Source: Xanthomonas campestris pv. campestris str. ATCC 33913
GTDB taxonomy: Bacteria; Pseudomonadota; Gammaproteobacteria; Xanthomonadales; Xanthomonadaceae
DNA length: 32,000 nucleotides
NCBI RefSeq assembly: GCF_000007145.1
Contig: NC_003902.1
Span: 3,266,497-3,298,496 of the forward strand
Direction of reading: 5' to 3'
Under the pieces are notes generated by a model. The model was not told the origin of the DNA. It did not search any database and saw nothing but the letters and a program-made list of their open reading frames with translations. Within the stretch, counting starts at the first letter, position 1, and the number at the start of each line of letters is the position of its first letter. Below, one piece after another: positions 6,492 through 16,883 of the stretch. The position numbers and the translations under genes are program-made.

Positions 6492-7034
6492 TCAGGCAGC
6501 CAGTGCCTTGGCAACCGCATCGGTGAATGCAGGAATATCGTCCGGCTTGCGGCTGGTGATCAGCTGGCCATCCACTACCACCTCGGCATCCTCCCAGCGG
6601 CCGCCCGCGTTGCTCAGATCGGTCTTGACCGACGGCCACGACGTCACCTTGCGGTCGCGCACCAGCCCACTTTCCACCAGCAACCACGGCCCGTGGCAGA
6701 TTGCAGCCACCGGCTTGCCGCTGGCCGCAACGCTGCGGATGAAGTCAATCGCCTGCGCGTTGGTGCGCAGGTTGTCCGGGTTGATCACACCGCCTGGCAG
6801 CACGAGCGCGTCGTAGCGGTCGGGTTTGGCCTGCGCGAGGGGCGTGTCCACCGGCACGCTGTCGCCCCAGTCGGTGTGGTTCCAGCCACGGATCTGTGCA
6901 TCGTCGCCGGGCGCGATCACCTCGACGGTGGCGCCCCAGGATTCCAGCAAGCGCTTGGGCTCCTGCAGCTCGGATTGTTCGAAGCCACTGGTCGCGAGCA
7001 CGGCAACGGTCTTGCCGGAGAGCGAATGGGTCAT
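6492..7034 (-). CDS. DJ-1/PfpI-family type 1 glutamine amidotransferase-like protein (YhbO-like)
   Basis: I trimmed the track ORF to the ATG at 7034 (MTHSLSGKTVAVL...), which is preceded by a GAGGAG ribosome-binding site. The nucleophile elbow AAICHGPWLL and LVLPGG are present. Confidence 0.87.
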   Translation of the reverse strand: MTHSLSGKTVAVLATSGFEQSELQEPKRLLESWGATVEVIAPGDDAQIRGWNHTDWGDSVPVDTPLAQAKPDRYDALVLPGGVINPDNLRTNAQAIDFIRSVAASGKPVAAICHGPWLLVESGLVRDRKVTSWPSVKTDLSNAGGRWEDAEVVVDGQLITSRKPDDIPAFTDAVAKALAA

Positions 7035-7141
7035 GAGGAACTCCTCAATCTGCAAAGGAGCCTGCACCCTAGGAATGCGCGTGTTGCGCATCCGTGAACC
7101 GATGTGCGCGCCGCGTCATGCCGACCGCCGCGCGCCGTTGC

Positions 7142-7609
7142 TCAGCGCTTGGGCTGCAACATGGTGCCGGTGCAATTCTTCGAGCCGCAGCGGCATTCCC
7201 AGATCTTCTTCAAGCGCGGCGTGTGCCGCTCGCCCAGGGTGATGCCGTAGTTATAGGTCAACTCCTGGCCCGGCTTGATTGCGCGCTTGGCTTCGATGAA
7301 GACCTTGTCCTTGCTGCGGTCGTCGCCTTCAGCCTCTTCGATCACCGCTTCGCAATTGGGATTGCAGCTGTGGTTGATCCAGCGCGCGATGTTGCCTTCG
7401 TAGTTGGCGTCGAGCACGTAGTCATCGCTCAGCGTAAACAGAAAGGTGTGCCCGCTTTCCACATCGCCGGTGTCGTCGGCATCCACTTCGGCATGCGTCC
7501 GCAGGCGCCCCTTGTACTGGATGATGCGTTCGCCCTTGCTGAGCGCAGCGACGGCGAACACGCCATTGCCATGGATACGTGACTTGCGGGCGGCAACTTT
7601 GCGCGACAT
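7142..7609 (-). CDS. SET-domain protein-lysine N-methyltransferase with a post-SET Cys cluster
   Basis: The 155-aa ORF contains SRIHGNGVFA, ARWINHSCNPNC, GQELTYNYG and a terminal CRCGSKNC post-SET motif. Confidence 0.87.
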   Translation of the reverse strand: MSRKVAARKSRIHGNGVFAVAALSKGERIIQYKGRLRTHAEVDADDTGDVESGHTFLFTLSDDYVLDANYEGNIARWINHSCNPNCEAVIEEAEGDDRSKDKVFIEAKRAIKPGQELTYNYGITLGERHTPRLKKIWECRCGSKNCTGTMLQPKR

Positions 7610-7721
7610 GAAAGGGTCCGGTGATGGGGCCGCTCATTGTGACCGCAGCGCGCCCACGCGCCAAGCACAAGCGCACCGGCCACCGCAACGGGCTGGCCTT
7701 TCCGGCGGCTGAACCGCGCGG

Positions 7722-7750
7722 TTGGACTGAGCGGAGCAAAAGAGTACAAT
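7722..7750 (+). promoter_or_regulatory. Candidate sigma70 promoter of the suf operon
   Basis: TTGGAC (7722-7727), a 17-nt spacer, then TACAAT (7745-7750). It lies 33 nt upstream of the regulator ATG. This is pattern matching only. Confidence 0.4.
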
Positions 7751-7782
7751 TTCGGTCCGCTTTAGGGATTCACCGTCCTCGC

Positions 7783-8241
7783 ATGTTGCGCGTCACCAAA
7801 TTGACCGATTACGCCACCGTTGTCTTGACGGTGCTGGCTGCACGGAGCGACCAGGTGCTCAGCGCGAGCGAACTGGCCGAACAGGCCGGCCTGGAAGCGC
7901 CCACCGTCAGCAAGATCCTCAAGCCGTTGTCGCAGGCTGGCCTGGTGGAAGGATTGCGCGGCGTGCACGGCGGCTACCGGCTTGCACGTGCGGCCAGCGC
8001 GATCACCCTGGTGGAGATCGTCGAAGCCATGGAAGGGCCGCTGGCCATCACCGAATGCAGCCAGGACCACAGTCAATGCGGGATCGCCCACCAATGCGGT
8101 GTGCGCTCCAACTGGCGCCTGATCAACGATGTAGTGGGCGATGCCCTGCGTCGCGTGACCCTGGCGCAGATGCTGCACCCCCTCTCCCTCCCTGGCGACA
8201 ACCGTCGGCGTTCCATCGCCGCGCGCGTCGCGACCACCTGA
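7783..8241 (+). CDS. Rrf2/IscR-family transcriptional regulator heading the suf operon
   Basis: I trimmed track ORF 7621..8241 to the ATG at 7783 (MLRVTKLTDYATVVL...). There is a winged-helix N-terminus and a Cys cluster, CSQDHSQCGIAHQCG (C-x6-C-x5-C), like the Fe-S ligands of IscR. It sits immediately upstream of sufB. Confidence 0.87.
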   Translation: MLRVTKLTDYATVVLTVLAARSDQVLSASELAEQAGLEAPTVSKILKPLSQAGLVEGLRGVHGGYRLARAASAITLVEIVEAMEGPLAITECSQDHSQCGIAHQCGVRSNWRLINDVVGDALRRVTLAQMLHPLSLPGDNRRRSIAARVATT

Positions 8242-8256
8242 CCCAGTAGGCAGCCG

Positions 8257-9714
8257 ATGGCCACCGAACTTGCCCCCCCGCAGAATGCGCAGATCCTCGA
8301 ACGGTTGGGCCGACGTTACGACGCCGGTTTCATCACCGAGATCGAATCCGATTCGCTCCCGCCCGGTCTGGACGAAGACATCATCCGTGCACTGTCGGCC
8401 AAGAAAGAAGAGCCGCAATGGATGACCGACTGGCGCCTGGAGGCCTACCGCCACTGGCTGAAAATGCCGATGCCGGAGTGGGCCAAGTTGAAGATCGCGC
8501 CGATCGATTTCCAGGCGTTGAGCTATTACTCCGCGCCCAAGGGTCCGAAGTACGCGTCGCTGGATGATGTGCCCAAGGAACTGCTCGACACCTACGACAA
8601 GCTCGGCGTGCCGTTGCACGAGCGCGCGCGGCTGGCCGGCGTTGCGGTGGATGCAGTGTTCGATTCGGTCTCGGTCGGCACCACCTTCCGCAAGGAACTG
8701 GCCGAAAAGGGCGTGATCTTCTGCTCGATGTCCGAGGCGATCAAAGAGCATCCGGAGATCGTCAAACAGTACCTCGGCAGCGTGGTGCCGGTGGGCGACA
8801 ACTATTTTGCCGCGCTGAACTCGGCCGTATTTTCCGATGGCAGCTTCGTGTTCATTCCCAAGGGCGTGCGTTGCCCGATGGAACTGAGCACCTACTTCCG
8901 CATCAACGCCGGCCACACCGGCCAGTTCGAGCGCACCTTGATCGTGTGCGAAGACAAGGCCTACGTGTCGTACCTGGAAGGCTGCACCGCGCCAATGCGC
9001 GACGAAAACCAGCTGCATGCGGCCGTGGTGGAACTGGTGACGCTGGAAGATGCGGAGATCAAGTATTCGACCGTGCAGAACTGGTACCCGGGCGATGAGG
9101 AAGGCCGCGGCGGCATCTACAACTTCGTCACCAAGCGTGCCGAATGCCGTGGCGACCGCAGCAAGGTGACCTGGACCCAGGTCGAAACTGGCTCGGCGAT
9201 CACCTGGAAGTACCCGTCGTGCGTGCTGCTGGGCGACGATTCGGTGGGCGAGTTCCACTCGGTGGCCCTCACCCACCATCGTCAGCAGGCCGATACCGGC
9301 ACCAAGATGATCCACATCGGCAAGCGCACCAAGAGCAAGATCGTCAGCAAGGGCATCAGCGCCGGCCGCGGCCAGAACACCTACCGTGGCCTGGTCAAGG
9401 TGGATCGCAACGCCGATGGCGCGCGCAACTACACCCAGTGCGATTCGCTGTTGATCGGCAAGCAGTGCGGCGCCCACACCTTTCCCTATATCGAGGTGAA
9501 GAATCCCGGCGCCACAGTCGAGCACGAAGCCACCACCTCCAAGATCAGCGACGACCAGCTGTTCTACTGCCGCGCACGCGGCATCAGCCAGGAAGACGCG
9601 GTGTCGTTGATCGTGGATGGGTTCTGCAAGCAGGTGTTCCGCGAACTGCCGATGGAATTTGCGGTGGAAGCCAAGAAGCTGCTCGAAGTTTCCTTAGAAG
9701 GCAGCGTCGGCTGA
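8257..9714 (+). CDS. sufB: Fe-S cluster assembly scaffold SufB
   Basis: The 485-aa ORF contains [36 protein letters not shown] and [10 protein letters not shown], a characteristic SufB sequence. Confidence 0.95.
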
Positions 9715-9717
9715 CAC

Positions 9718-9852
9718 CTTTCCCCTTCTCCCCTCGGGAGAAGGTGGCGCGCAGCGCCGGATGAGGGTACGGGCGAAGCCAAGTGCACCCAAACGGCACG
9801 ATGCTTCGCACGAACCCTCACCCCAACCCCTCTCCCGGCAGGAGAGGGGCTA
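9718..9852. repeat. REP-like composite palindromic element in the sufB-sufC spacer
   Basis: Hairpin 1 is CCTTCTCCC (9724-9732) paired with GGGAGAAGG (9736-9744). Hairpin 2 is CCCCTCTCC (9827-9835) paired with GGAGAGGGG (9841-9849). Between them lie inner imperfect inverted arms, GAGGGTACGGGCGAAG and CTTCGCACGAACCCTC. The motif resembles the interspersed intergenic repeats I recall from Xanthomonas, Stenotrophomonas and Burkholderia. Confidence 0.6.
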
Positions 9853-9878
9853 CATACGAATTCTGACGGACCATCAGC

Positions 9879-10643
9879 ATGCTCAACATTCAAAATCTCC
9901 ACGCCAGCATCGCCGGCAAAGACATCCTCAAGGGCCTGTCGCTGGACATCCAGCCCGGCCAGGTGCACGCCATCATGGGGCCCAACGGCGCCGGCAAATC
10001 GACCCTGGGCAATGTGCTCGCCGGTCGCGATGGCTACGCAGTCACTGCCGGCAGCGTGCAGTTCGAAGGCGCCGACCTGCTCGACCTGCAGCCGGAAGAA
10101 CGCGCTGCGGCCGGCCTGTTCCTGGCCTTCCAGTACCCGGTGGAAATCCCCGGCGTAAACAACACCTACTTCCTGCGTGCCGCGCTCAATGCGCAGCGCA
10201 AGGCGCGTGGCGAAGAAGAGCTGGATTCCATGCAGTTCCTCAAGCTGGTGCGGCAGAAGCTGGCGGTGCTGCATCTGAAGGACGAGCTGCTGCACCGTGG
10301 CGTCAACGAAGGGTTCTCCGGCGGCGAAAAGAAGCGCAACGAGATCTTCCAGCTGGCCGTACTCGAGCCGAAGTTGGCGATCCTGGACGAAACCGACTCC
10401 GGCCTGGATATCGATGCACTCAAGAGCGTGGCCGACGGCGTCAATGCGCTGCGCTCGACCGAGCGTTCGTTCCTGGTGATCACCCATTACCAGCGCCTGC
10501 TCGACTACATCAAGCCGGACGTGGTGCATGTGCTGTCCGATGGGCGCATCGTGCAGAGTGGCGGCCCGGAGCTGGCGCTGGAGTTGGAAAAACACGGCTA
10601 CCACTTCCTGAAGGACCGTGTGGTGCCGGAGGCCGCCGCCTGA
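9879..10643 (+). CDS. sufC: Fe-S cluster assembly ATPase SufC
   Basis: The 254-aa ORF contains GPNGAGKSTL (Walker A), the ABC signature FSGGEKKRNEI and LAILDETDSGLD (Walker B). Confidence 0.95.
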   Translation: MLNIQNLHASIAGKDILKGLSLDIQPGQVHAIMGPNGAGKSTLGNVLAGRDGYAVTAGSVQFEGADLLDLQPEERAAAGLFLAFQYPVEIPGVNNTYFLRAALNAQRKARGEEELDSMQFLKLVRQKLAVLHLKDELLHRGVNEGFSGGEKKRNEIFQLAVLEPKLAILDETDSGLDIDALKSVADGVNALRSTERSFLVITHYQRLLDYIKPDVVHVLSDGRIVQSGGPELALELEKHGYHFLKDRVVPEAAA

Positions 10644-11905
10644 TGAGTGCCTTGTTGGAATCCCTTGCCAGCGGGTTTAGCGGCAATGCTGCACGGCGCG
10701 CCGAACTCGACGCGGCCTTGCAGACCGGCCTGCCCGGCCCGCGTGCCGAAGCCTGGAAATACACCTCGCTGCGCCAGCTGGAACGCCGCAGCTTCCAGCC
10801 TGCACCGTTGGTGCCGGCGCTGATCGATGCCGCGGTGCTGGATGAGATCCCCACCCCGCGCCTGGTGTTCGTCAATGGCCGTGCGTCGGATGCGCTGAGC
10901 GATCTGTCCGAACTTCCGGCAGGCGTGCAGGTGCAGACGCTGTCGTCCGCACTAGTTGGCGATGAATCGGCGCAGCAGCTGCTTGGCCGCCGCTTCGAGC
11001 GCAGCGATGAAATTTTCGCGCGTCTGAATGCCGCGCTGGCCGATGAAGGCGCGCTGGTGCGCGTGGACGCAGGCGTCAAGGTGGCGCTGCCGCTGCAGCT
11101 GGTGTTCGTTAGCGTGGGCGGCGAGCACGACCTGGCCTGGCACCACCGCCATCTGATCGAATTGCGTGCCGACGCCGCGCTCGGCGTGGTCGAGCACCAC
11201 CTGCACGTAGGCGATGCAGCGCATCTGGACAACAGCGTGATGCATGTCCATCTGGCCCAGGACGCCGTGCTTTCGCACGCACGCGTGCAGGCCGATAGCG
11301 CACGCGCCACCGCGTTCGCGCGGACCGATGCGGTGCTGGCGCGCAATGCGCAGTACCAGCGTGTGGACCTGGAGCTGGGCGCAGGCCTGTCCCGGCACGA
11401 ACTCAATGCGCGGCTGGAAGGCGACAATGCACGGCTCACCGCCAATGGCGTGCTGCTGGGCAATGGCCGCCGGCATGTGGATACCCGCCTGGGCATCGAG
11501 CACATCGCCCGCGACACCGCCTGCGAGCTGGTCTGGCGCGGCGTCGGCGCCGACCGCAGCCGCGTGGTGTTCCACGGCGGCATCCATATCCGCCAGGGCG
11601 CCGATGGCACCGATGCACGTTTGTCGAACAAGAACCTGTTGCTCTCGGACAACGCCGAAATCGACACCCAGCCGGTGCTGGTGATCGACGCGGACGAAGT
11701 GCAGGCCGCGCACGGTGCCACCGTGGGTCAGCTCGACGACAACGCGCTGTTCTACCTGCGCTCGCGCGGGTTGCCGCAGCAGCAGGCGCAGCGCTTGCTC
11801 AGCGCCGCGTTCTGCCATGAGCCGTTGCGCGCACTGCCGTCGCCATTGCGCGATCTGCTGGCCGTGCAGCTGGACCGCGCCCTGAATTCGGCGGGCGTGG
11901 CATGA
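10643..11905 (+). CDS. sufD: Fe-S cluster assembly protein SufD
   Basis: I trimmed track ORF 9761..11905 to the ATG at 10643 (MSALLESLASGF...). This ATG overlaps the sufC stop as TGATG. EAWKYTSL and the C-terminal HGATVGQLDDNALFYLRSRGL are SufD-like. The upstream part of the track ORF overlaps sufC out of frame. Confidence 0.9.
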   Translation: MSALLESLASGFSGNAARRAELDAALQTGLPGPRAEAWKYTSLRQLERRSFQPAPLVPALIDAAVLDEIPTPRLVFVNGRASDALSDLSELPAGVQVQTLSSALVGDESAQQLLGRRFERSDEIFARLNAALADEGALVRVDAGVKVALPLQLVFVSVGGEHDLAWHHRHLIELRADAALGVVEHHLHVGDAAHLDNSVMHVHLAQDAVLSHARVQADSARATAFARTDAVLARNAQYQRVDLELGAGLSRHELNARLEGDNARLTANGVLLGNGRRHVDTRLGIEHIARDTACELVWRGVGADRSRVVFHGGIHIRQGADGTDARLSNKNLLLSDNAEIDTQPVLVIDADEVQAAHGATVGQLDDNALFYLRSRGLPQQQAQRLLSAAFCHEPLRALPSPLRDLLAVQLDRALNSAGVA

Positions 11906-13143
11906 ACGCCTCCGTCGCCGCCACTCCGGCACCGGACTGGGAGCGCGTACGCTCCGATTTCCCGCTGCTGATGCGGCAGGTGCACGGCAAGCCGCTGATC
12001 TATTTCGACAACGCCAACACCGGGCAGAAGCCGCTGCAGGTGATCGCTGCCACCGACGAGTTCTATCGCCGGCAGAACGCCAATGTCAGCCGCGCGGTGC
12101 ATGCACTGGGCACCGAAGCCACCGACGCGTTCGAGGGCGCACGCAGCAAGCTGGCGCGTTTTCTCAACGTGCGCGCCGACGAGCTGGTGCTGTGCAGCGG
12201 CACCACCTTCGCGATCAATCTGGTGGCCTATTCCTGGGCGCTGCCGCGCCTGGGGCCGAGCGATGTGATCCTGGTATCGCGCATGGAGCACCACGCCAAT
12301 ATCGTGCCGTGGCAGTTGGTGGCCCAGCGCACCGGCGCCACCATCCGCGTGGCCGAGATCACGCCTGAGGGCGCGCTGGATCTGGATGCACTGCGTAAGG
12401 CGATGACCCCCGAGGTCAAGCTGCTGGCGATCACCCACGTGTCCAACGTGCTGGGCACAGTGAACCCGGTGCGCGAGATCTGCCGTGAGGCACGCAAGCG
12501 CGGCATCGTCACCGTAGTGGACGGCTCGCAAGCCGCACCGCACCGCCGCGTCGACGTGGCCGGCATCGGCTGCGATTTCTACGCCATCACCGGCCACAAG
12601 ATGTGCGGCCCCACCGGCACCGGAGCATTGTGGGCGCGCCGCGAACATCTGCAGGCCATGCCGCCGTTTTTGGGCGGCGGCGAGATGATCAAGGAAGTGA
12701 GCTTCGAAGGCACCGTATTCAACGACGGCCCGCACAAGTTCGAAGCCGGCACGCCGAATATCGCTGGCTTCATCGGCTTGGGCGCGGCGGTTGACTATCT
12801 GGACGCAGTCGGCCTGGCGCACGTGGAAGCGCGCGAGACCGAGCTGCTCGCGCACTTCACCGAAGAGCTGCAGCGCATCGACGGCCTGCGCATCTTCGGC
12901 ACCACGCCGGACAAGGCGGCGGTGGTGTCGTTCCTGATCGAAGGCGCACATGCGCACGATCTGGCCACCCTGCTCGACCTGGAAGGCGTGGCCGTCCGCT
13001 CCGGCCAGCACTGCGCACACCCGCTGCTGCAGTACTACGGCGTGGCCGCCACCTGCCGCGCCTCGCTGGCGTTCTACAACACGCATGACGAGATCGAGCG
13101 TTTTGTTGCCGCGTTGGTGAAGGTGCGTCAGCTTTTGGGCTGA
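11902..13143 (+). CDS. sufS: Cysteine desulfurase SufS (group II)
   Basis: The 413-aa ORF overlaps the sufD stop as ATGA. It contains ITGHKMCGPTGTGAL (PLP lysine), RSGQHCAHPL (active-site Cys loop) and SLAFYNTHDEI. Confidence 0.95.
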   Translation: MNASVAATPAPDWERVRSDFPLLMRQVHGKPLIYFDNANTGQKPLQVIAATDEFYRRQNANVSRAVHALGTEATDAFEGARSKLARFLNVRADELVLCSGTTFAINLVAYSWALPRLGPSDVILVSRMEHHANIVPWQLVAQRTGATIRVAEITPEGALDLDALRKAMTPEVKLLAITHVSNVLGTVNPVREICREARKRGIVTVVDGSQAAPHRRVDVAGIGCDFYAITGHKMCGPTGTGALWARREHLQAMPPFLGGGEMIKEVSFEGTVFNDGPHKFEAGTPNIAGFIGLGAAVDYLDAVGLAHVEARETELLAHFTEELQRIDGLRIFGTTPDKAAVVSFLIEGAHAHDLATLLDLEGVAVRSGQHCAHPLLQYYGVAATCRASLAFYNTHDEIERFVAALVKVRQLLG

Positions 13144-13150
13144 TTGACTG

Positions 13151-13171
13151 CGGGAATCGGGAATGGAGAAT
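13151..13171. repeat. Inverted copies of the heptamer (CGGGAAT x2 plus degenerate GGAGAAT)
   Basis: The copies start 8 nt after the sufS stop. They are the reverse complement (ATTCCCG) of the downstream array unit. Confidence 0.7.
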
Positions 13172-13244
13172 CGAACAAGCGGGTCTCCCACATGCTGTCG
13201 CTGGTCGACAGAGGGGGAGTAGCTCATTGAGCGGCGCAACGCTT

Positions 13245-13342
13245 TTCCCGATTCCCGATTCCCGATTCCCGACTCCCGATTCCCGATTCCCGATTCCCGA
13301 CTCCCGACTCCCGATTCCCGATTCCCGATTCCCGATTCCCGA
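13245..13342. repeat. Tandem heptanucleotide array (YTCCCGA) x14
   Basis: I counted unit by unit: 11 copies of TTCCCGA and 3 of CTCCCGA (units 5, 9 and 10), contiguous with no spacers. The array ends 13 nt before the GNAT ATG at 13356. Confidence 0.97.
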
Positions 13343-13355
13343 TAAACTGTTCCAC

Positions 13356-13895
13356 ATGCAGACCACCACCTTCCGCACCGCCACCGTCGACGATATCGAT
13401 GCCATCGTCGCGCTCGTCACCTCCGCCTATCGCGGCGACAGCAGCCGCGTCGGCTGGACCACCGAAGCCGACATCCTGGACGGTGCGCGCATCGACCCGG
13501 CGGTGTTGCGGCAGGACATCCTGCGCGACCGCAGCCTGGTGCTGCTGGTGGAACAGGACGGCGCCCTGGTGGCCTGCGCGCATGTTGCCGACGAGGACGG
13601 CGCCGGTTACTTCGGCATGTTCTCGGTCAGCCCCACCCTGCAGGGCGGCGGTATCGGCAAGACAGTGCTCGCCGAAGCCGAACGCATCGCCGCCACCGAG
13701 TGGGCCCTGCCGCTGATGCGCATGACCGTGATCGACGTGCGCAACGAACTCATCGCCTTCTACGAACGCCGCGGGTATCGCCGTACCGGCGTGTCCAAGC
13801 CTTTCCCCTATGGCGACGAGCGCTTCGGCGTGCCGTTGCGCCAGGACCTGCGCTTCGAAGTGCTGGAGAAGCCGCTCGGCGAGGCCGCGTTGTGA
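13356..13895 (+). CDS. GNAT-family N-acetyltransferase
   Basis: I trimmed track ORF 13227..13895 to the ATG at 13356 (MQTTTFRTATVDDIDAIV...). The acetyl-CoA motif LQGGGIGKTVL and the tail AFYERRGYRRTG are present. Upstream of 13356 the track ORF merely translates the heptamer array. Confidence 0.8.
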   Translation: MQTTTFRTATVDDIDAIVALVTSAYRGDSSRVGWTTEADILDGARIDPAVLRQDILRDRSLVLLVEQDGALVACAHVADEDGAGYFGMFSVSPTLQGGGIGKTVLAEAERIAATEWALPLMRMTVIDVRNELIAFYERRGYRRTGVSKPFPYGDERFGVPLRQDLRFEVLEKPLGEAAL

Positions 13896-14221
13896 GCGAC
13901 AACTGGACCTTTGTCTGCGCCAGCGGCGAATTGCTGCCGGGCGAGCTGAAGACCGTGTGGGATGAAGTGACCGATGCGCCGATCGTGGTGTTCAACCTCG
14001 ACGGCGCGCTGTACGCGCTGGAAGACCGCTGCAGCCACGAAGATTACGAACTCTCGCCCGGCACCTTCGACGCGTCCGCCGGCACCATCGAGTGCCTGCT
14101 GCACAGCGCGCGCTTCGATATCCGCGATGGGCGTCCTCTGTGCGCCCCGGCCTATTCCGCAGTGTCCAAGTTCCCGGTGAAGCAGGAACACGGCGGTATC
14201 TGGACCCGCGACGACCGCTGA
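13892..14221 (+). CDS. Rieske [2Fe-2S] ferredoxin-like protein
   Basis: The GTG start at 13892 overlaps the GNAT stop as GTGA (VSDNWTFVCASGELLPG...). The Rieske ligands are CSHEDY...ECLLHSARF, a CxH...CxxH pattern. Confidence 0.85.
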   Translation: MSDNWTFVCASGELLPGELKTVWDEVTDAPIVVFNLDGALYALEDRCSHEDYELSPGTFDASAGTIECLLHSARFDIRDGRPLCAPAYSAVSKFPVKQEHGGIWTRDDR

Positions 14222-14305
14222 GCGCAGTGCCCAGCCGCCACTGGCAGCGCACCGCAAGGCCTCAATCTTTCAGCCGTATGCCATCCATCGGCAAAGATTG
14301 CAAAG

Positions 14306-14324
14306 AAGAATGATTTGCATTTAA
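14306..14324. promoter_or_regulatory. Weak Fur-box-like AT-rich site upstream of the TonB-dependent receptor
   Basis: By my count AAGAATGATTTGCATTTAA matches 11 of 19 positions of GATAATGATAATCATTATC. It is the only AT-rich island in the 343-bp spacer and lies about 240 nt upstream of the start codon. Confidence 0.3.
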
Positions 14325-14564
14325 GATCGCAACCCTTCAGGCCTTCTTAACAACTGGCCTTCCTGCGATCCCATGCGCCTGCCCCTGTCCATGCCGTTTT
14401 CTTCCTGGTGTTCGTCCGCCCTGTGCCGTTCGGCGCAGCGCTGCCGCGTGCACGGACGCCGGGCCTGGCAGCAGGCGGCATCGGGCTGACAGGCGCGCAT
14501 TCCCTTCCCGCATCCGCCGAGCCATCGCCAGGCCGAAGCATCGCTTCCCTTTTCGAGACGTCCC

Positions 14565-16883
14565 ATGACTCCCAGGATTTCCCCGCTCACTTCGGCCGTG
14601 TTGCTGACGCTGTCCGCTCCTGCCTTCGCCCAGCCTGGCGACGCGCCGGCACCTCCGGGCGCAGTGGATCTGGATGCGATCCGGGTGCAGCAGGAGCGTG
14701 CGCAGAAGCCGTCCTCGCCCAAGTACACCGAGGCGCTGCGCGACACCCCGCAGACCATCACCGTGGTCACCAAGCAGACCATGGACCAGCAGAACCTGCT
14801 GTCGCTGCGTGATGTGCTCAGCACCCTGCCCGGCATCACCTTTGGTGCAGGCGAAGGCGGCGGCGGGTATGGCGACAGCATCAACCTGCGCGGCTTTACC
14901 GCCAGCAGCGACATCACCACCGACGGCGTGCGCGACAGCGCGCAGTACAGCCGCAGCGACACCTTCAACCTGGAAGCGGTGGAGCTGATCAACGGCGCCA
15001 ACTCGGCAATGTCCGGCGCAGGCTCGGTCGGTGGCAACATCAACCTGGTGACCAAGACCGCCGGCCAAGGCGACTTCACCAACGTGCTGATCGGCGGCGG
15101 CAGCGACCGCTACGGCCGCCTCACCGTCGACAGCAACTACGACTTCGAAAACGGCACCGCGGTGCGCTTGAACACCATGGGTCATACCCAGGACGTGCCG
15201 GGCCGCGATGAGGAATTCCGTCATCGCTGGGGCTTTGCGCCGTCGGTGGCGTTCGGGCTGGGCTCGGACACGCGCTTCACGCTGAGCTACCTGCACCAGC
15301 ACGACAACAACCTGCCGCAGTACGGCGTGCCGTTCGCGCTCAGCCCGTTCAACGATGGCCCGCTGCCGGGCGTGGACCGCGAAACCTATTACGGCTATCG
15401 CAATGTGTCGCGTCAGGAGATCGACGTGGACATGCTGACCGGCGTGCTGGAAATGGACTTCGACGACAACGTCAAACTGCGCAGCCTGGCGCGTGTGCAG
15501 CGCGTGGACCAGACCACCACGGCCACCGCGCCGGAAGGCACCTGGTGCCTGCCCAACAACACCAACGCCTACACCGGCCGCGCCTGCGTCGGCCAGCCGC
15601 CGTCCACCTGGAACCCGAACAGCGGCCCGCGCGGGCTGGTGCGCGAGACCGAAAACTTCATCGCCCACAGCCAGACCGACCTGACCGCCACCCTGCACAC
15701 CGGCGCCATCGAGCACCGCGTGGTCGCCGGCGTGGCCTTCAGCAAGGAAGATTTCGAACTCGATAGCGGCAGCATCTTCCGCAATGCCGACGGCTCCACC
15801 ACCGGCATCACCTACCCGCTGCAGACCTTCGACAACCCGTACAACATCTGGACCGGCCCGCAGAACTATTTCCGCACCGGACGCAGCAAGGGCAGCCTGA
15901 CCAATCAGGCGGTGTACCTGTTCGACACGCTGCAGTTCAACGAGCAATGGATGCTCAACCTGGGCGGCCGTTACGAACACAACGAAGGCGACAGCACCAC
16001 CTACACCGTCAATGCCACCGGCGGCGTGACCGGCGTGACTCCGGGGTTCCCGGCAGGCAGCGAAGAGGATCTGTTCTCCTACCGCGCCGGCCTGGTATTC
16101 AAGCCGGTCGACAACGCCAGCCTGTATCTGTCCTACGCCAACAGCAAGACCCCGTCCAAGGCGTCGGTCAATGGCTCGTGCACGCCGATCGCCACTGCCA
16201 CCGTCGGCGCCAACTGCAATGTGGAGCCGGAAAGCGCGGTCAATATCGAACTCGGCGGTAAGTGGGACGTGTTGAACGAGCGTCTGGCACTGACGGCGGC
16301 GGTGTTCCGCAACGAGCGCGAGAACTACAAGGTCAACAGCGGCGACCCGCTGATTCCCGAGCAGGTGCTCGACGGCAAGGCGCGCGTGGATGGCATTGCG
16401 CTGGGCGCGGCCGGCTACCTGACCGAGCGTTGGTCGGTCTTCGCCAACTACACTTTCCTGGACAGCGAAGTGCTGCAGAGCGTTTCCAACCGCACTGCCA
16501 GCCTCACCGGCGACCCGATTGCCGGACGCGAACTGGTGCAGACCCCGCGCAACGCCGGCAATCTCTGGACCACGTATCAGCTCAACGAGTGGACGTTCGG
16601 GTACGGCGTCAATTACCAGGGCAGCTTCTATCCGAACAACACCTCGACCGCGGTCTACCGCAAGACCGACGCGTACTGGGTGCACCGCGCGATGGTCGGC
16701 CTGCGCGTCAACGACTGGCTCAGCCTGCAGTTGAACGTCAACAACCTGTTCGACAAGGAGTACTACACCAGCATCCGCAACAACCTCACCGTCAACGCCG
16801 CGGGCACCGTCACCGCCGGCAGCGGCTGGGCGTTGCCGGGTGATGGCCGCTCGGCGGTATTGAACGCGACCTTCAGCTTCTGA
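14565..16883 (+). CDS. TonB-dependent siderophore receptor (Fiu/PiuA/CirA-like catecholate type)
   Basis: The ORF is 772 aa. The signal peptide is MTPRISPLTSAVLLTLSAPAFAQ. Plug motifs are DTPQTITVVT and LRGF, and the protein ends in the beta-barrel terminus ...LNATFSF. A piuC/ybiX homologue follows directly, as in fiu-ybiX and piuA-piuC. Confidence 0.92.
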   Translation: MTPRISPLTSAVLLTLSAPAFAQPGDAPAPPGAVDLDAIRVQQERAQKPSSPKYTEALRDTPQTITVVTKQTMDQQNLLSLRDVLSTLPGITFGAGEGGGGYGDSINLRGFTASSDITTDGVRDSAQYSRSDTFNLEAVELINGANSAMSGAGSVGGNINLVTKTAGQGDFTNVLIGGGSDRYGRLTVDSNYDFENGTAVRLNTMGHTQDVPGRDEEFRHRWGFAPSVAFGLGSDTRFTLSYLHQHDNNLPQYGVPFALSPFNDGPLPGVDRETYYGYRNVSRQEIDVDMLTGVLEMDFDDNVKLRSLARVQRVDQTTTATAPEGTWCLPNNTNAYTGRACVGQPPSTWNPNSGPRGLVRETENFIAHSQTDLTATLHTGAIEHRVVAGVAFSKEDFELDSGSIFRNADGSTTGITYPLQTFDNPYNIWTGPQNYFRTGRSKGSLTNQAVYLFDTLQFNEQWMLNLGGRYEHNEGDSTTYTVNATGGVTGVTPGFPAGSEEDLFSYRAGLVFKPVDNASLYLSYANSKTPSKASVNGSCTPIATATVGANCNVEPESAVNIELGGKWDVLNERLALTAAVFRNERENYKVNSGDPLIPEQVLDGKARVDGIALGAAGYLTERWSVFANYTFLDSEVLQSVSNRTASLTGDPIAGRELVQTPRNAGNLWTTYQLNEWTFGYGVNYQGSFYPNNTSTAVYRKTDAYWVHRAMVGLRVNDWLSLQLNVNNLFDKEYYTSIRNNLTVNAAGTVTAGSGWALPGDGRSAVLNATFSF

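Follow-up and report, generated by a model that had tools for sequence, protein, structure and literature searches.

A catalogued GGGAATC repeat pair between sufS and a GNAT gene of Xanthomonas campestris combines a hypervariable heptamer array with an adjacent, probably leaderless promoter

What does a 14-copy heptanucleotide array, facing inverted copies of its own unit, do between the last gene of a suf cluster and an acetyltransferase gene? The question is raised by a 32,000-nucleotide stretch of the chromosome of Xanthomonas campestris pv. campestris strain ATCC 33913 (NC_003902.1, positions 3,266,497 to 3,298,496; hereafter, the window), in which YTCCCGA units occupy part of the gap between sufS and a gene for a GNAT acetyltransferase that is followed by a gene for a small Rieske protein. 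An initial annotation, made from the letters of the window, proposed for this arrangement a register-sliding hairpin within a suf operon leader. We consider another answer likely: this is a known GGGAATC repeat pair, the pure arm of which varies by near-neutral slippage as a variable-number tandem repeat (VNTR) that abuts a leaderless promoter.

The stop codon of sufS (TGA), read directly from the window sequence, is located at 13141–13143. Downstream of it, CGGGAAT CGGGAAT GGAGAAT occupies 13151–13171, and 73 nt separate the end of these copies from the array, which runs from 13245 to 13342 on the plus strand as (TTCCCGA)4 CTCCCGA (TTCCCGA)3 (CTCCCGA)2 (TTCCCGA)4, that is, 14 YTCCCGA units. 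Between the end of the array and the GNAT start codon at 13356 lie 13 nt, TAAACTGTTCCAC. Tandem Repeats Finder scores the array at 177, with 14.1 copies of TTCCCGA (95% match), and counts 3.3 copies of CGGGAAT at 13151–13173; a two-unit pattern has 16 matches in the window against 0.18 expected, a number reached by none of 100 shuffles. The array, the inverted copies, and the flanking genes are as initially described, according to coordinate, tandem-repeat, and Pfam checks.

The short, G-rich arm could be refined to a four-unit block on the plus strand, TGACTGC GGGAATC GGGAATG GAGAATC (13145–13172), which begins 1 nt past the sufS stop codon. Its first unit, TGACTGC (13145–13151), is a degenerate one, as judged from X. 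arboricola and X. citri, because the left arm starts directly after TGA-T in these species; the counterpart of this unit is TGGAATC in X. arboricola and GGGAATC in X. citri. The block is an instance of the stereotyped 28-nt family block GGGAATC GGGARTR GRGAATC GGGAATC, which recurs in the table of Rehm et al. 2015, and the unit GGAGAAT belongs to this family consensus rather than being a product of random decay. The palindrome extends ~8 nt inward, with GAACAAGC (13173–13180) pairing with GCTTTTCC (13241–13248), and the spacer between the arms (13173–13244, plus strand) additionally holds a small hairpin, CTGTCG-CTGGT-CGACAG (13195–13211).

The locus is not new, being already catalogued as repeats #123 and #124 by Rehm et al. 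2015 (PLoS One 10:e0144275), and the view that its placement had not been described was mistaken. Repeat #123 of ATCC 33913 is GGGAATCGGGAATGGAGAATC, with three units on the plus strand at 3279648–3279668, 8 nt after nifS XCC2769 (PMC4692102, S2 Table A); these are units 2–4 of the short arm. Repeat #124 is (GGGAATC)4(GGGAGTC)2(GGGAATC)3GGGAGTC(GGGAATC)3GGGAAAA, with 14 units and 98 nt on the minus strand (PMC4692102, S2 Table A), at 3279739–3279836 and 15 nt from the acetyltransferase gene XCC2770. The two are marked as an inverted pair 70 nt apart (PMC4692102), and #124 is among the longest repeats of the genome (PMC4692102, S3 Table B). The published unit pattern of #124 is the reverse complement of the window array, unit by unit: the minus strand of 13243–13340 spells the #124 pattern, and the plus strand of 13152–13172 spells GGGAATCGGGAATGGAGAATC. 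As unit pattern, strand, unit numbers, and gene distances match, the published repeats and the window locus are the same object. Absent from that study are the strain-level copy-number variation at this site, the adjacent putative leaderless −10 box, and the family outside Xanthomonas.

Both arms conform to the definition of the GGGAATC family, namely tandem repeats of ≥14 bp (≥2 units) that contain GGGAATC at least once and may have heterogeneous units, (GGGANTN)n (PMC4692102). X. campestris pv. campestris ATCC 33913 has 186 such repeats and X. citri 306 has 183. About 90% of them lie between genes, a size of four units is favored, and in 70 cases two nearby repeats are in convergent orientation (PMC4692102), as are the two arms of the sufS–GNAT pair. 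Repeats of this family are placed on the coding strand just past stop codons and on the non-coding strand just before start codons (PMC4692102). Correspondingly, the short arm is on the coding strand, 8 nt past the sufS stop codon (1 nt if the degenerate unit is included), and the long arm, whose G-rich strand is the non-coding one, stops 13 nt short of the GNAT ATG. Rehm et al. identified no regulatory role or function for these repeats and found no link with mobile elements (PMC4692102).

The long arm was compared across 13 X. campestris genomes, of which 12 were further assemblies retrieved by exact-protein look-up of the GNAT and Rieske proteins. It was found to be a hypervariable VNTR, having 4, 10, 14, 17, 17, 19, 20, 20, 22, 23, 25, 27, and 29 units in these genomes. 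The sufS–GNAT gap ranges accordingly from 142 to 317 nt, with the whole of the size difference located in the long arm. The short arm and the tail TAAACTGTTCCAC are invariant, and the spacer is near-constant, differing by a few substitutions or by a 1-nt deletion (L004–L006). A VNTR had been predicted from the window alone, with cross-strain comparison named beforehand as the test, and the range of 4–29 units between constant flanks bears this out.

Slipped-strand mispairing during replication is the most likely driver of the change in copy number, because several features fit the behavior of microsatellites. Several alleles share a 3′, promoter-proximal motif (C-T-T-T-C-C-T-T-T-T, by the first letter of each unit) and differ only in the spacer-proximal pure run, which has 4, 7, 9, or 10 units. 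The two 17-unit alleles have different internal patterns, constituting a case of size homoplasy. Variability also tracks repeat purity when X. campestris, X. arboricola, and X. citri are compared. The X. arboricola group has 3–5 units in its purer left arm and 4–14 (19 in L081) in the right one. In X. citri, the right arm, which is interrupted, does not vary, and 3 or 4 units make up the pure portion of the left arm.

Heptamers of this class are in use for multilocus VNTR analysis (MLVA) of xanthomonads, as the initial annotation had stated. The units CGATTCC, CCGATTC, GGGATTC/GGGAATC, and tTCCCGA occur in the MLVA-16 scheme of X. euvesicatoria (PMC8002079) and in that of X. citri pv. viticola (PMC6482255). 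Like the window array, these MLVA loci are intergenic and consist of 7-nt units of the same sequence class, and interspersed variant units reveal size homoplasy in them as well. Their allelic ranges, for example 5–12, 6–18, and 11–16, are narrower than the 4–29 of the sufS–GNAT array. No MLVA scheme for X. campestris pv. campestris that names the sufS–GNAT locus was found in the literature searched. With 11 size classes among 13 genomes, the array could be a highly discriminating marker for typing X. campestris.

The promoter-proximal end of the array leads directly into a conserved element. From 80 metagenomic loci with GNAT orthologues, together with the isolate loci, we assembled 69 non-redundant upstream regions and examined 60 nt of each. 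A TAnnnT hexamer lies 6–7 nt before the GNAT ATG in 53 of the 69 (6 nt in 41 and 7 nt in 12), and TAnnnT occurs at all other offsets combined only 4 times. Hexamers at the conserved position include TAGAAT, TAAAAT, TACAAT, and TAAACT. The TAAACT of the window (13343–13348, plus strand), 7 nt before the ATG, fits this conserved geometry, and the position is that expected of a −10 box for a putative transcript that begins with the A of the ATG. The proposal that TAAACT may act as the −10 box of a leaderless transcript thus gains comparative support. Conservation of the hexamer across the Xanthomonadaceae would point to a deeply conserved leaderless promoter for the GNAT–Rieske pair. No GGAG-like sequence is present within 13 nt 5′ of the GNAT ATG, in agreement with the earlier reading that there is no Shine-Dalgarno sequence. 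Its absence is unremarkable, because Xanthomonas commonly produces leaderless mRNAs; in X. campestris pv. vesicatoria 85-10, they constitute 14% of mRNAs, and that strain has no Shine-Dalgarno consensus (PMC3300014).

Relatives also suggest where the suf operon ends. In lineages without heptamers, sufS is followed by a canonical terminator (L194 and L213) or by a GC-rich hairpin (L128, L156, and L157). In other Lysobacterales, doublets of repetitive extragenic palindromes (REPs) headed by GTAG (GTAGGAGCGGC...GCCGCTCCTAC) occupy the sufS–GNAT gap (L163, L171, L186, L190, L193, and L222). Since terminators or REP doublets are followed in these relatives by the same −10 box, sufS appears to be the end of the suf operon and GNAT–Rieske a separate unit, which is most likely transcribed as a leaderless mRNA of its own. 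We infer that the array is promoter-upstream DNA, or at most the suf 3′ flank of a read-through transcript, and not an operon-internal leader; it should not be read as such a leader, since GNAT–Rieske appears to be leaderless. Two elements of the initial annotation consequently fall away. The array would lie at an operon boundary instead of inside the suf operon, and its copy number would not change a leader length, as the array is upstream of the probable GNAT start site. A third element stands, which is that copy number leaves the local −35/−10 geometry untouched, because the array repeats every 7 nt and its end nearest the promoter does not move. As a separate observation, the sufS–GNAT gap repeatedly accumulates palindromic repeats of different families.

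The preferred account can be put together as follows. A four-unit G-rich block sits 1 nt past the sufS stop codon, and its inverted partner block ends 13 nt before the GNAT start codon. The pure TTCCCGA run of the partner block would expand and contract by slipped-strand mispairing, and the interrupted short arm would stay fixed. The pair would occupy the interval from the suf operon's 3′ end to the −10 box TAAACT, with the GNAT–Rieske mRNA starting at the ATG. A change in copy number would leave the core promoter geometry intact, and array length would most likely be near-neutral. The canonical 4:4 form may fold into a long hairpin; any effect would probably be mild, and would fall on suf 3′-end formation or on the structure of the DNA upstream of the promoter.

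The model that the locus first suggested is different. In it, a single transcript covers sufS, the array, and GNAT, the upstream GGGAAUC copies pair with the (UUCCCGA)n tract in any register, and copy number tunes expression of GNAT–Rieske in the manner of a contingency locus. The arms are indeed complementary: the 23-nt short arm matches four registers of the array at 91% complementarity and the others at 83–87%, which upholds the claim that the short arm is able to pair with the array. The 4-unit allele is predicted to form a long stem enclosing the entire spacer (−61.5 kcal/mol; z = −4.36; none of 200 shuffles as good). In the 14-unit allele, the minimum-free-energy fold pairs the short arm with distal units, within a register-degenerate ensemble. 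However, as RNA this allele folds no better than shuffles (z = −0.71), and its advantage as DNA is weak (z = −2.05). The gap has no predicted intrinsic terminator, which would allow co-transcription; there is no terminator-like site from 7000 to 15000, and the stem of the arms is followed by AUAAACUGUU, with no U-tract. Against co-transcription, the conserved −10 box at 6–7 nt before the ATG implies a leaderless mRNA that excludes the array, and on a read-through transcript an internal AUG with no Shine-Dalgarno sequence would be poorly used. GNAT orthologues also function without the element in many lineages.

Whether pairing between the arms has been maintained was assessed in the wider family. 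Scanning a genome collection for GGGAATCGGGA-N70-100-TCCCGATTCCC yielded at least 120 loci (L008–L127), a sample ascertained on GGGAATCGGGA ends; the family statistics given here and below refer to the 120 pairs listed. The arms, together with the inner 8 nt, are ~74% complementary. Transition mismatches in the sense strand have no bias toward G-U (71 versus 79 and 36 versus 36), so that wobble pairing is not favored family-wide. Permutation of partners reveals a small excess of matching (17.30 versus 16.94 identities of 21), and mirrored variants occur in 18.6% versus 11.1%, which amounts to weak locus-specific compensation. Variant units are shared between left and right arms within a locus (0.179) about as much as between loci of one genome (0.149). 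The two arms hence resemble independent copies of a consensus specific to the genome rather than a stem kept by compensatory change. The long-range hairpin as a selected structure is therefore not sustained, given the fold of the 14-unit allele, the level of complementarity, the lack of G-U bias, and a unit flavor that is genome-wide, and we rate the leader model as very improbable. Selection for arm pairing in general was considered and set aside because of the small partner excess, the lack of G-U bias, and the similar levels of sharing within and between loci. Translational coupling through looping out of the gap, with the arms bracketing a stop and a start codon, was also considered, and became unneeded once the leaderless −10 box emerged.

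A role in suf 3′-end formation is a somewhat better candidate, though still an unlikely one. The pair would act either as a REP- or BIME-like hairpin (BIME, bacterial interspersed mosaic element) that stabilizes or ends the suf transcript, or through (UUCCCGA)n as a Rho loading (rut) site before GNAT. It occupies the place that intrinsic terminators or REP doublets have in other Lysobacterales, and its G-rich block, at 1 nt past the stop codon, is positioned like those of the family (median 6 nt), which favors gaps between co-oriented or convergent genes and seldom occurs between divergent ones. In its canonical form the hairpin is significant, an RNA of the array would consist of 43% C and 14% G, and transcripts in X. 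citri end at repeats capable of forming G-quadruplexes (G4s) more often than at controls (PMC4692102). These points are opposed by the missing U-tract after the stem, by the incomplete complementarity of the arms family-wide with no sense-strand G-U bias, and by a 7-fold range in copy number that reveals no evident constraint. The Rho component is pure conjecture.

The array may instead act as DNA. Fourteen G3 tracts on the template strand could form G4s, and the C-strand an i-motif, upstream of the −10 box, such that activity of the GNAT promoter depends on copy number. The long arm has 14 intact GGG tracts, and its sequence would thus qualify for G4 formation, for which ≥4 G3 tracts are required. 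The oligonucleotides (GGGAATC)3GGG and (GGGAATC)4 form a K+-dependent G4 in vitro, with T1/2 values of 50 and 40°C in 100 mM KCl, and a C-strand oligonucleotide has i-motif signatures at pH 6.5 (PMC4692102). The preference of the family for four units would suit such a role, as would the location of the array, which adjoins the −10 box and supplies the −35 region. The G4 stability of the GGGAATC unit is modest, however, and Rehm et al. identified no regulatory role (PMC4692102). Lineages with degenerate arms that cannot form a G4 (the right arm in X. citri and those of X. hortorum) nevertheless keep the gene arrangement, and the short arm has only two GGG tracts, making an intramolecular G4 impossible there. 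A structural switch of this kind is accordingly quite unlikely.

The locus also invites comparison with contingency loci of Neisseria, Haemophilus, and Mycoplasma, in which a slippage-prone repeat likewise lies just upstream of a gene start and varies highly between strains. In those loci, the repeat is located between the −35 and −10 elements or inside the open reading frame (ORF), so that units alter spacing or frame. The sufS–GNAT array does neither: the −35 sequence is the same in every allele, and the array is outside the ORF. In addition, contingency loci control surface antigens, whereas the neighbors of the sufS–GNAT array are metabolic genes.

The same site in relatives provides a view of how the element comes and goes. 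X. campestris, X. arboricola, X. citri, and X. vesicatoria have a conserved spacer, whereas that of X. graminis, X. hortorum, and some X. arboricola haplotypes bears no relation to it. In X. graminis, the site has (GGGACTC)4 and (GAGTCCC)3 arms around its unrelated spacer, and arms of GGGGATT type with other spacers occur in some X. arboricola strains, X. hortorum, and two metagenomic relatives. The sufS–GNAT gap of Stenotrophomonas panacihumi is 67 nt long and free of heptamers, and in Thermomonas the GNAT gene lies 9 nt after barstar. By these comparisons, the repeat element is replaced or re-flavored at the sufS–GNAT site and appears dispensable to the genes elsewhere, because S. panacihumi is devoid of heptamers and those of X. 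hortorum and some X. arboricola are degenerate or replaced. The X. hortorum gap (L139–L141, 1609–2000) is 392 nt long and contains, besides degenerate GGGGATT-type arms, the extra palindromes CTTCTCCCACCGGGAGAAGG and CCCTCTCCCGATGGGAGAGGGG; the element seems to have been rebuilt at the same site. Six metagenomic loci (L173, L188, L197, L202, L207, and L223) have a gap of ~280–340 nt in place of the usual tens of nucleotides, with a long conserved stretch that resembles a small ORF with a hydrophobic C-terminus, according to by-eye translation.

Features of the family raise the question of whether slippage at single loci is the whole explanation. The blocks are stereotyped, ~28–36 nt in length, and of fixed polarity against the ORF end. 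The inner flanks of both arms have the consensus GnAAGAGC, which reads GTAG or GTAA only sometimes. The median distance from the outer edge of an arm is 6 nt to a stop codon (within 15 nt in 66 of 107) and 12.5 nt to a candidate start codon. As the edges abut ORF ends, the pairs bracket whole intergenic regions. Of the 92 pairs classified on both sides, 67 have co-oriented neighbors; the family is overrepresented where the flanking genes are co-oriented or convergent and is seldom found where they diverge. The spacers, 23–93 nt in length, are unrelated in sequence. Variant units are shared within a genome more than between genomes (Jaccard 0.161 versus 0.046, matched in 0 of 2000 permutations), and certain units are genome-specific, such as GGGACTC in the Gemmatimonadaceae metagenome-assembled genome (MAG) U2275, GGGAAGC in Coralloluteibacterium, and GGGAGTC in Chiayiivirga. 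At the orthologous sufS–GNAT site, flavor changes in both arms together (GGGAATC, GGGACTC, or GGGGATT).

Inverted block pairs also occur outside Xanthomonas, in many genera of Lysobacterales among the matches listed. They are present in at least 12 independent Gemmatimonadaceae MAGs (labels as given), on several contigs each, some of >500 kb, and these contigs have about one extra block per 8 kb. Single contigs of 41–54% GC labeled Bacteroidota/Bacteroidetes, Chitinophagaceae, Methanobacteriota, and Defluviitaleaceae (labels as given) contain pairs as well.

These blocks resemble REPs, BIMEs, and REPINs in being short, dispersed intergenic palindromes, often arranged as inverted doublets, that are overrepresented just past stop codons and in gaps separating co-oriented or convergent genes and that have lineage-specific flavors. 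They differ in that the arms are tandem heptamers instead of a single GC-rich hairpin, the spacers are long and unrelated between loci, and GnAAGAGC is only loosely like the GTAG head. A second likeness is to the short tandemly repeated repetitive (STRR) sequences of cyanobacteria, which in Nostoc include a tandem heptanucleotide, GGGGA(C/T)T. The Nostoc repeats are also intergenic, G-rich tandem heptamers with the same ORF-end placement and a preference for about four units, but they have another unit, belong to another phylum, and form a much more stable G4.

The likeness to REPs suggests a further explanation, in which the 28-nt blocks are written or maintained by a trans-acting system, either REP/RAYT-like mobilization or a boundary-binding protein, and the sufS–GNAT arm is one that happened to expand. 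The stereotyped block with its inner consensus, the distances of the outer edges from stop and start codons, the genome-specific flavors, and the presence of blocks in distant phyla all speak for it. So does the sufS–GNAT site, at which both arms are GGGACTC in X. graminis and of GGGGATT type in some X. arboricola and X. hortorum, around unrelated spacers. On the other side, no associated protein was found, and none was sought; the spacers are not homologous between loci, which disfavors a simple miniature inverted-repeat transposable element (MITE); Rehm et al. reported no association with mobile elements (PMC4692102); and the sample was selected by its GGGAATCGGGA ends. We regard this explanation of the locus as possible but unlikely. 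Likewise, there is a minor chance that the family as a whole is REPIN-like, written or homogenized by such a system, rather than a set of mere microsatellites. A MITE with a conserved core was considered in its own right and is neither supported nor cleanly refuted: the spacers are unrelated, and the 67-nt Stenotrophomonas gap is no obvious empty site.

Several observations weigh against the near-neutral VNTR beside a leaderless promoter that we favor. X. vesicatoria does not have the TAnnnT box, and TAAACT itself is weak as a −10 box and has no recognizable −35 element. In X. citri, G4-capable repeats are start or stop points of transcripts more often than controls are, and G4 formation by GGGAATC oligonucleotides in vitro leaves room for a structural role of the array (PMC4692102). 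Strict placement at ORF ends and genome-specific flavors suggest that the family is not purely neutral. The finding as given matters little, the locus being tabulated and the array an ordinary slippage VNTR; it is the ORF-end placement, the genome-specific flavors, and the occurrence in distant phyla that would matter, if a dedicated mechanism is behind them.

The genes that flank the pair are conserved in order. The sufS gene (annotated nifS, XCC2769; 11902–13143, plus strand) encodes a class-V aminotransferase-type cysteine desulfurase (Pfam Aminotran_5, E = 2.5e-138) and is the final gene of the sufBCDS cluster. The GNAT acetyltransferase gene (XCC2770; 13356–13895, plus strand) encodes 179 amino acids with matches to Pfam Acetyltransf_1, _7, and _10, and has no Shine-Dalgarno sequence. 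It is followed by the gene for the small Rieske [2Fe-2S] protein (13892–14221, plus strand; 109 amino acids, GTG start), which is supported by Pfam Rieske and by gene calls (L001 and others). The Rieske GTG overlaps the GNAT stop codon (GTGA, 13892–13895), a usual sign of translational coupling. The order sufC-sufD-sufS-GNAT-Rieske-TonB receptor is conserved in L001–L007 and in other Xanthomonas and Stenotrophomonas loci. The GNAT start is shared by homologues of 177–187 amino acids, with query coverage of 91–100% (nearly all 97–100%).

In some strains, the GNAT ORF has been called through the array, resulting in 222, 236, or 257 amino acids instead of 179 (window 13227–13895, P0001; L237, 531–1304; L238, 594–1304). 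These over-long calls occur where the copy number happens to keep the frame open, and gene callers thus wrongly extend the GNAT ORF. The 222-amino acid ORF (P0001) was rejected as a gene-caller artifact, because a 7-nt unit cannot hold the frame across alleles.

No known structured RNA was found at 12800–13700 on either strand (Rfam 15, E ≤ 1). A sigma-70-like match, TTGACT-16 nt-GAGAAT, overlaps the short arm at 13144–13171. It is probably a chance match, as TTGACT is specific to X. campestris, being TTGGAATC in X. arboricola and absent from X. citri. Lastly, Tandem Repeats Finder reports 2.5 copies of a 21-nt unit (75% match) at 11806–11858, at the 3′ end of sufD and before the sufS start.

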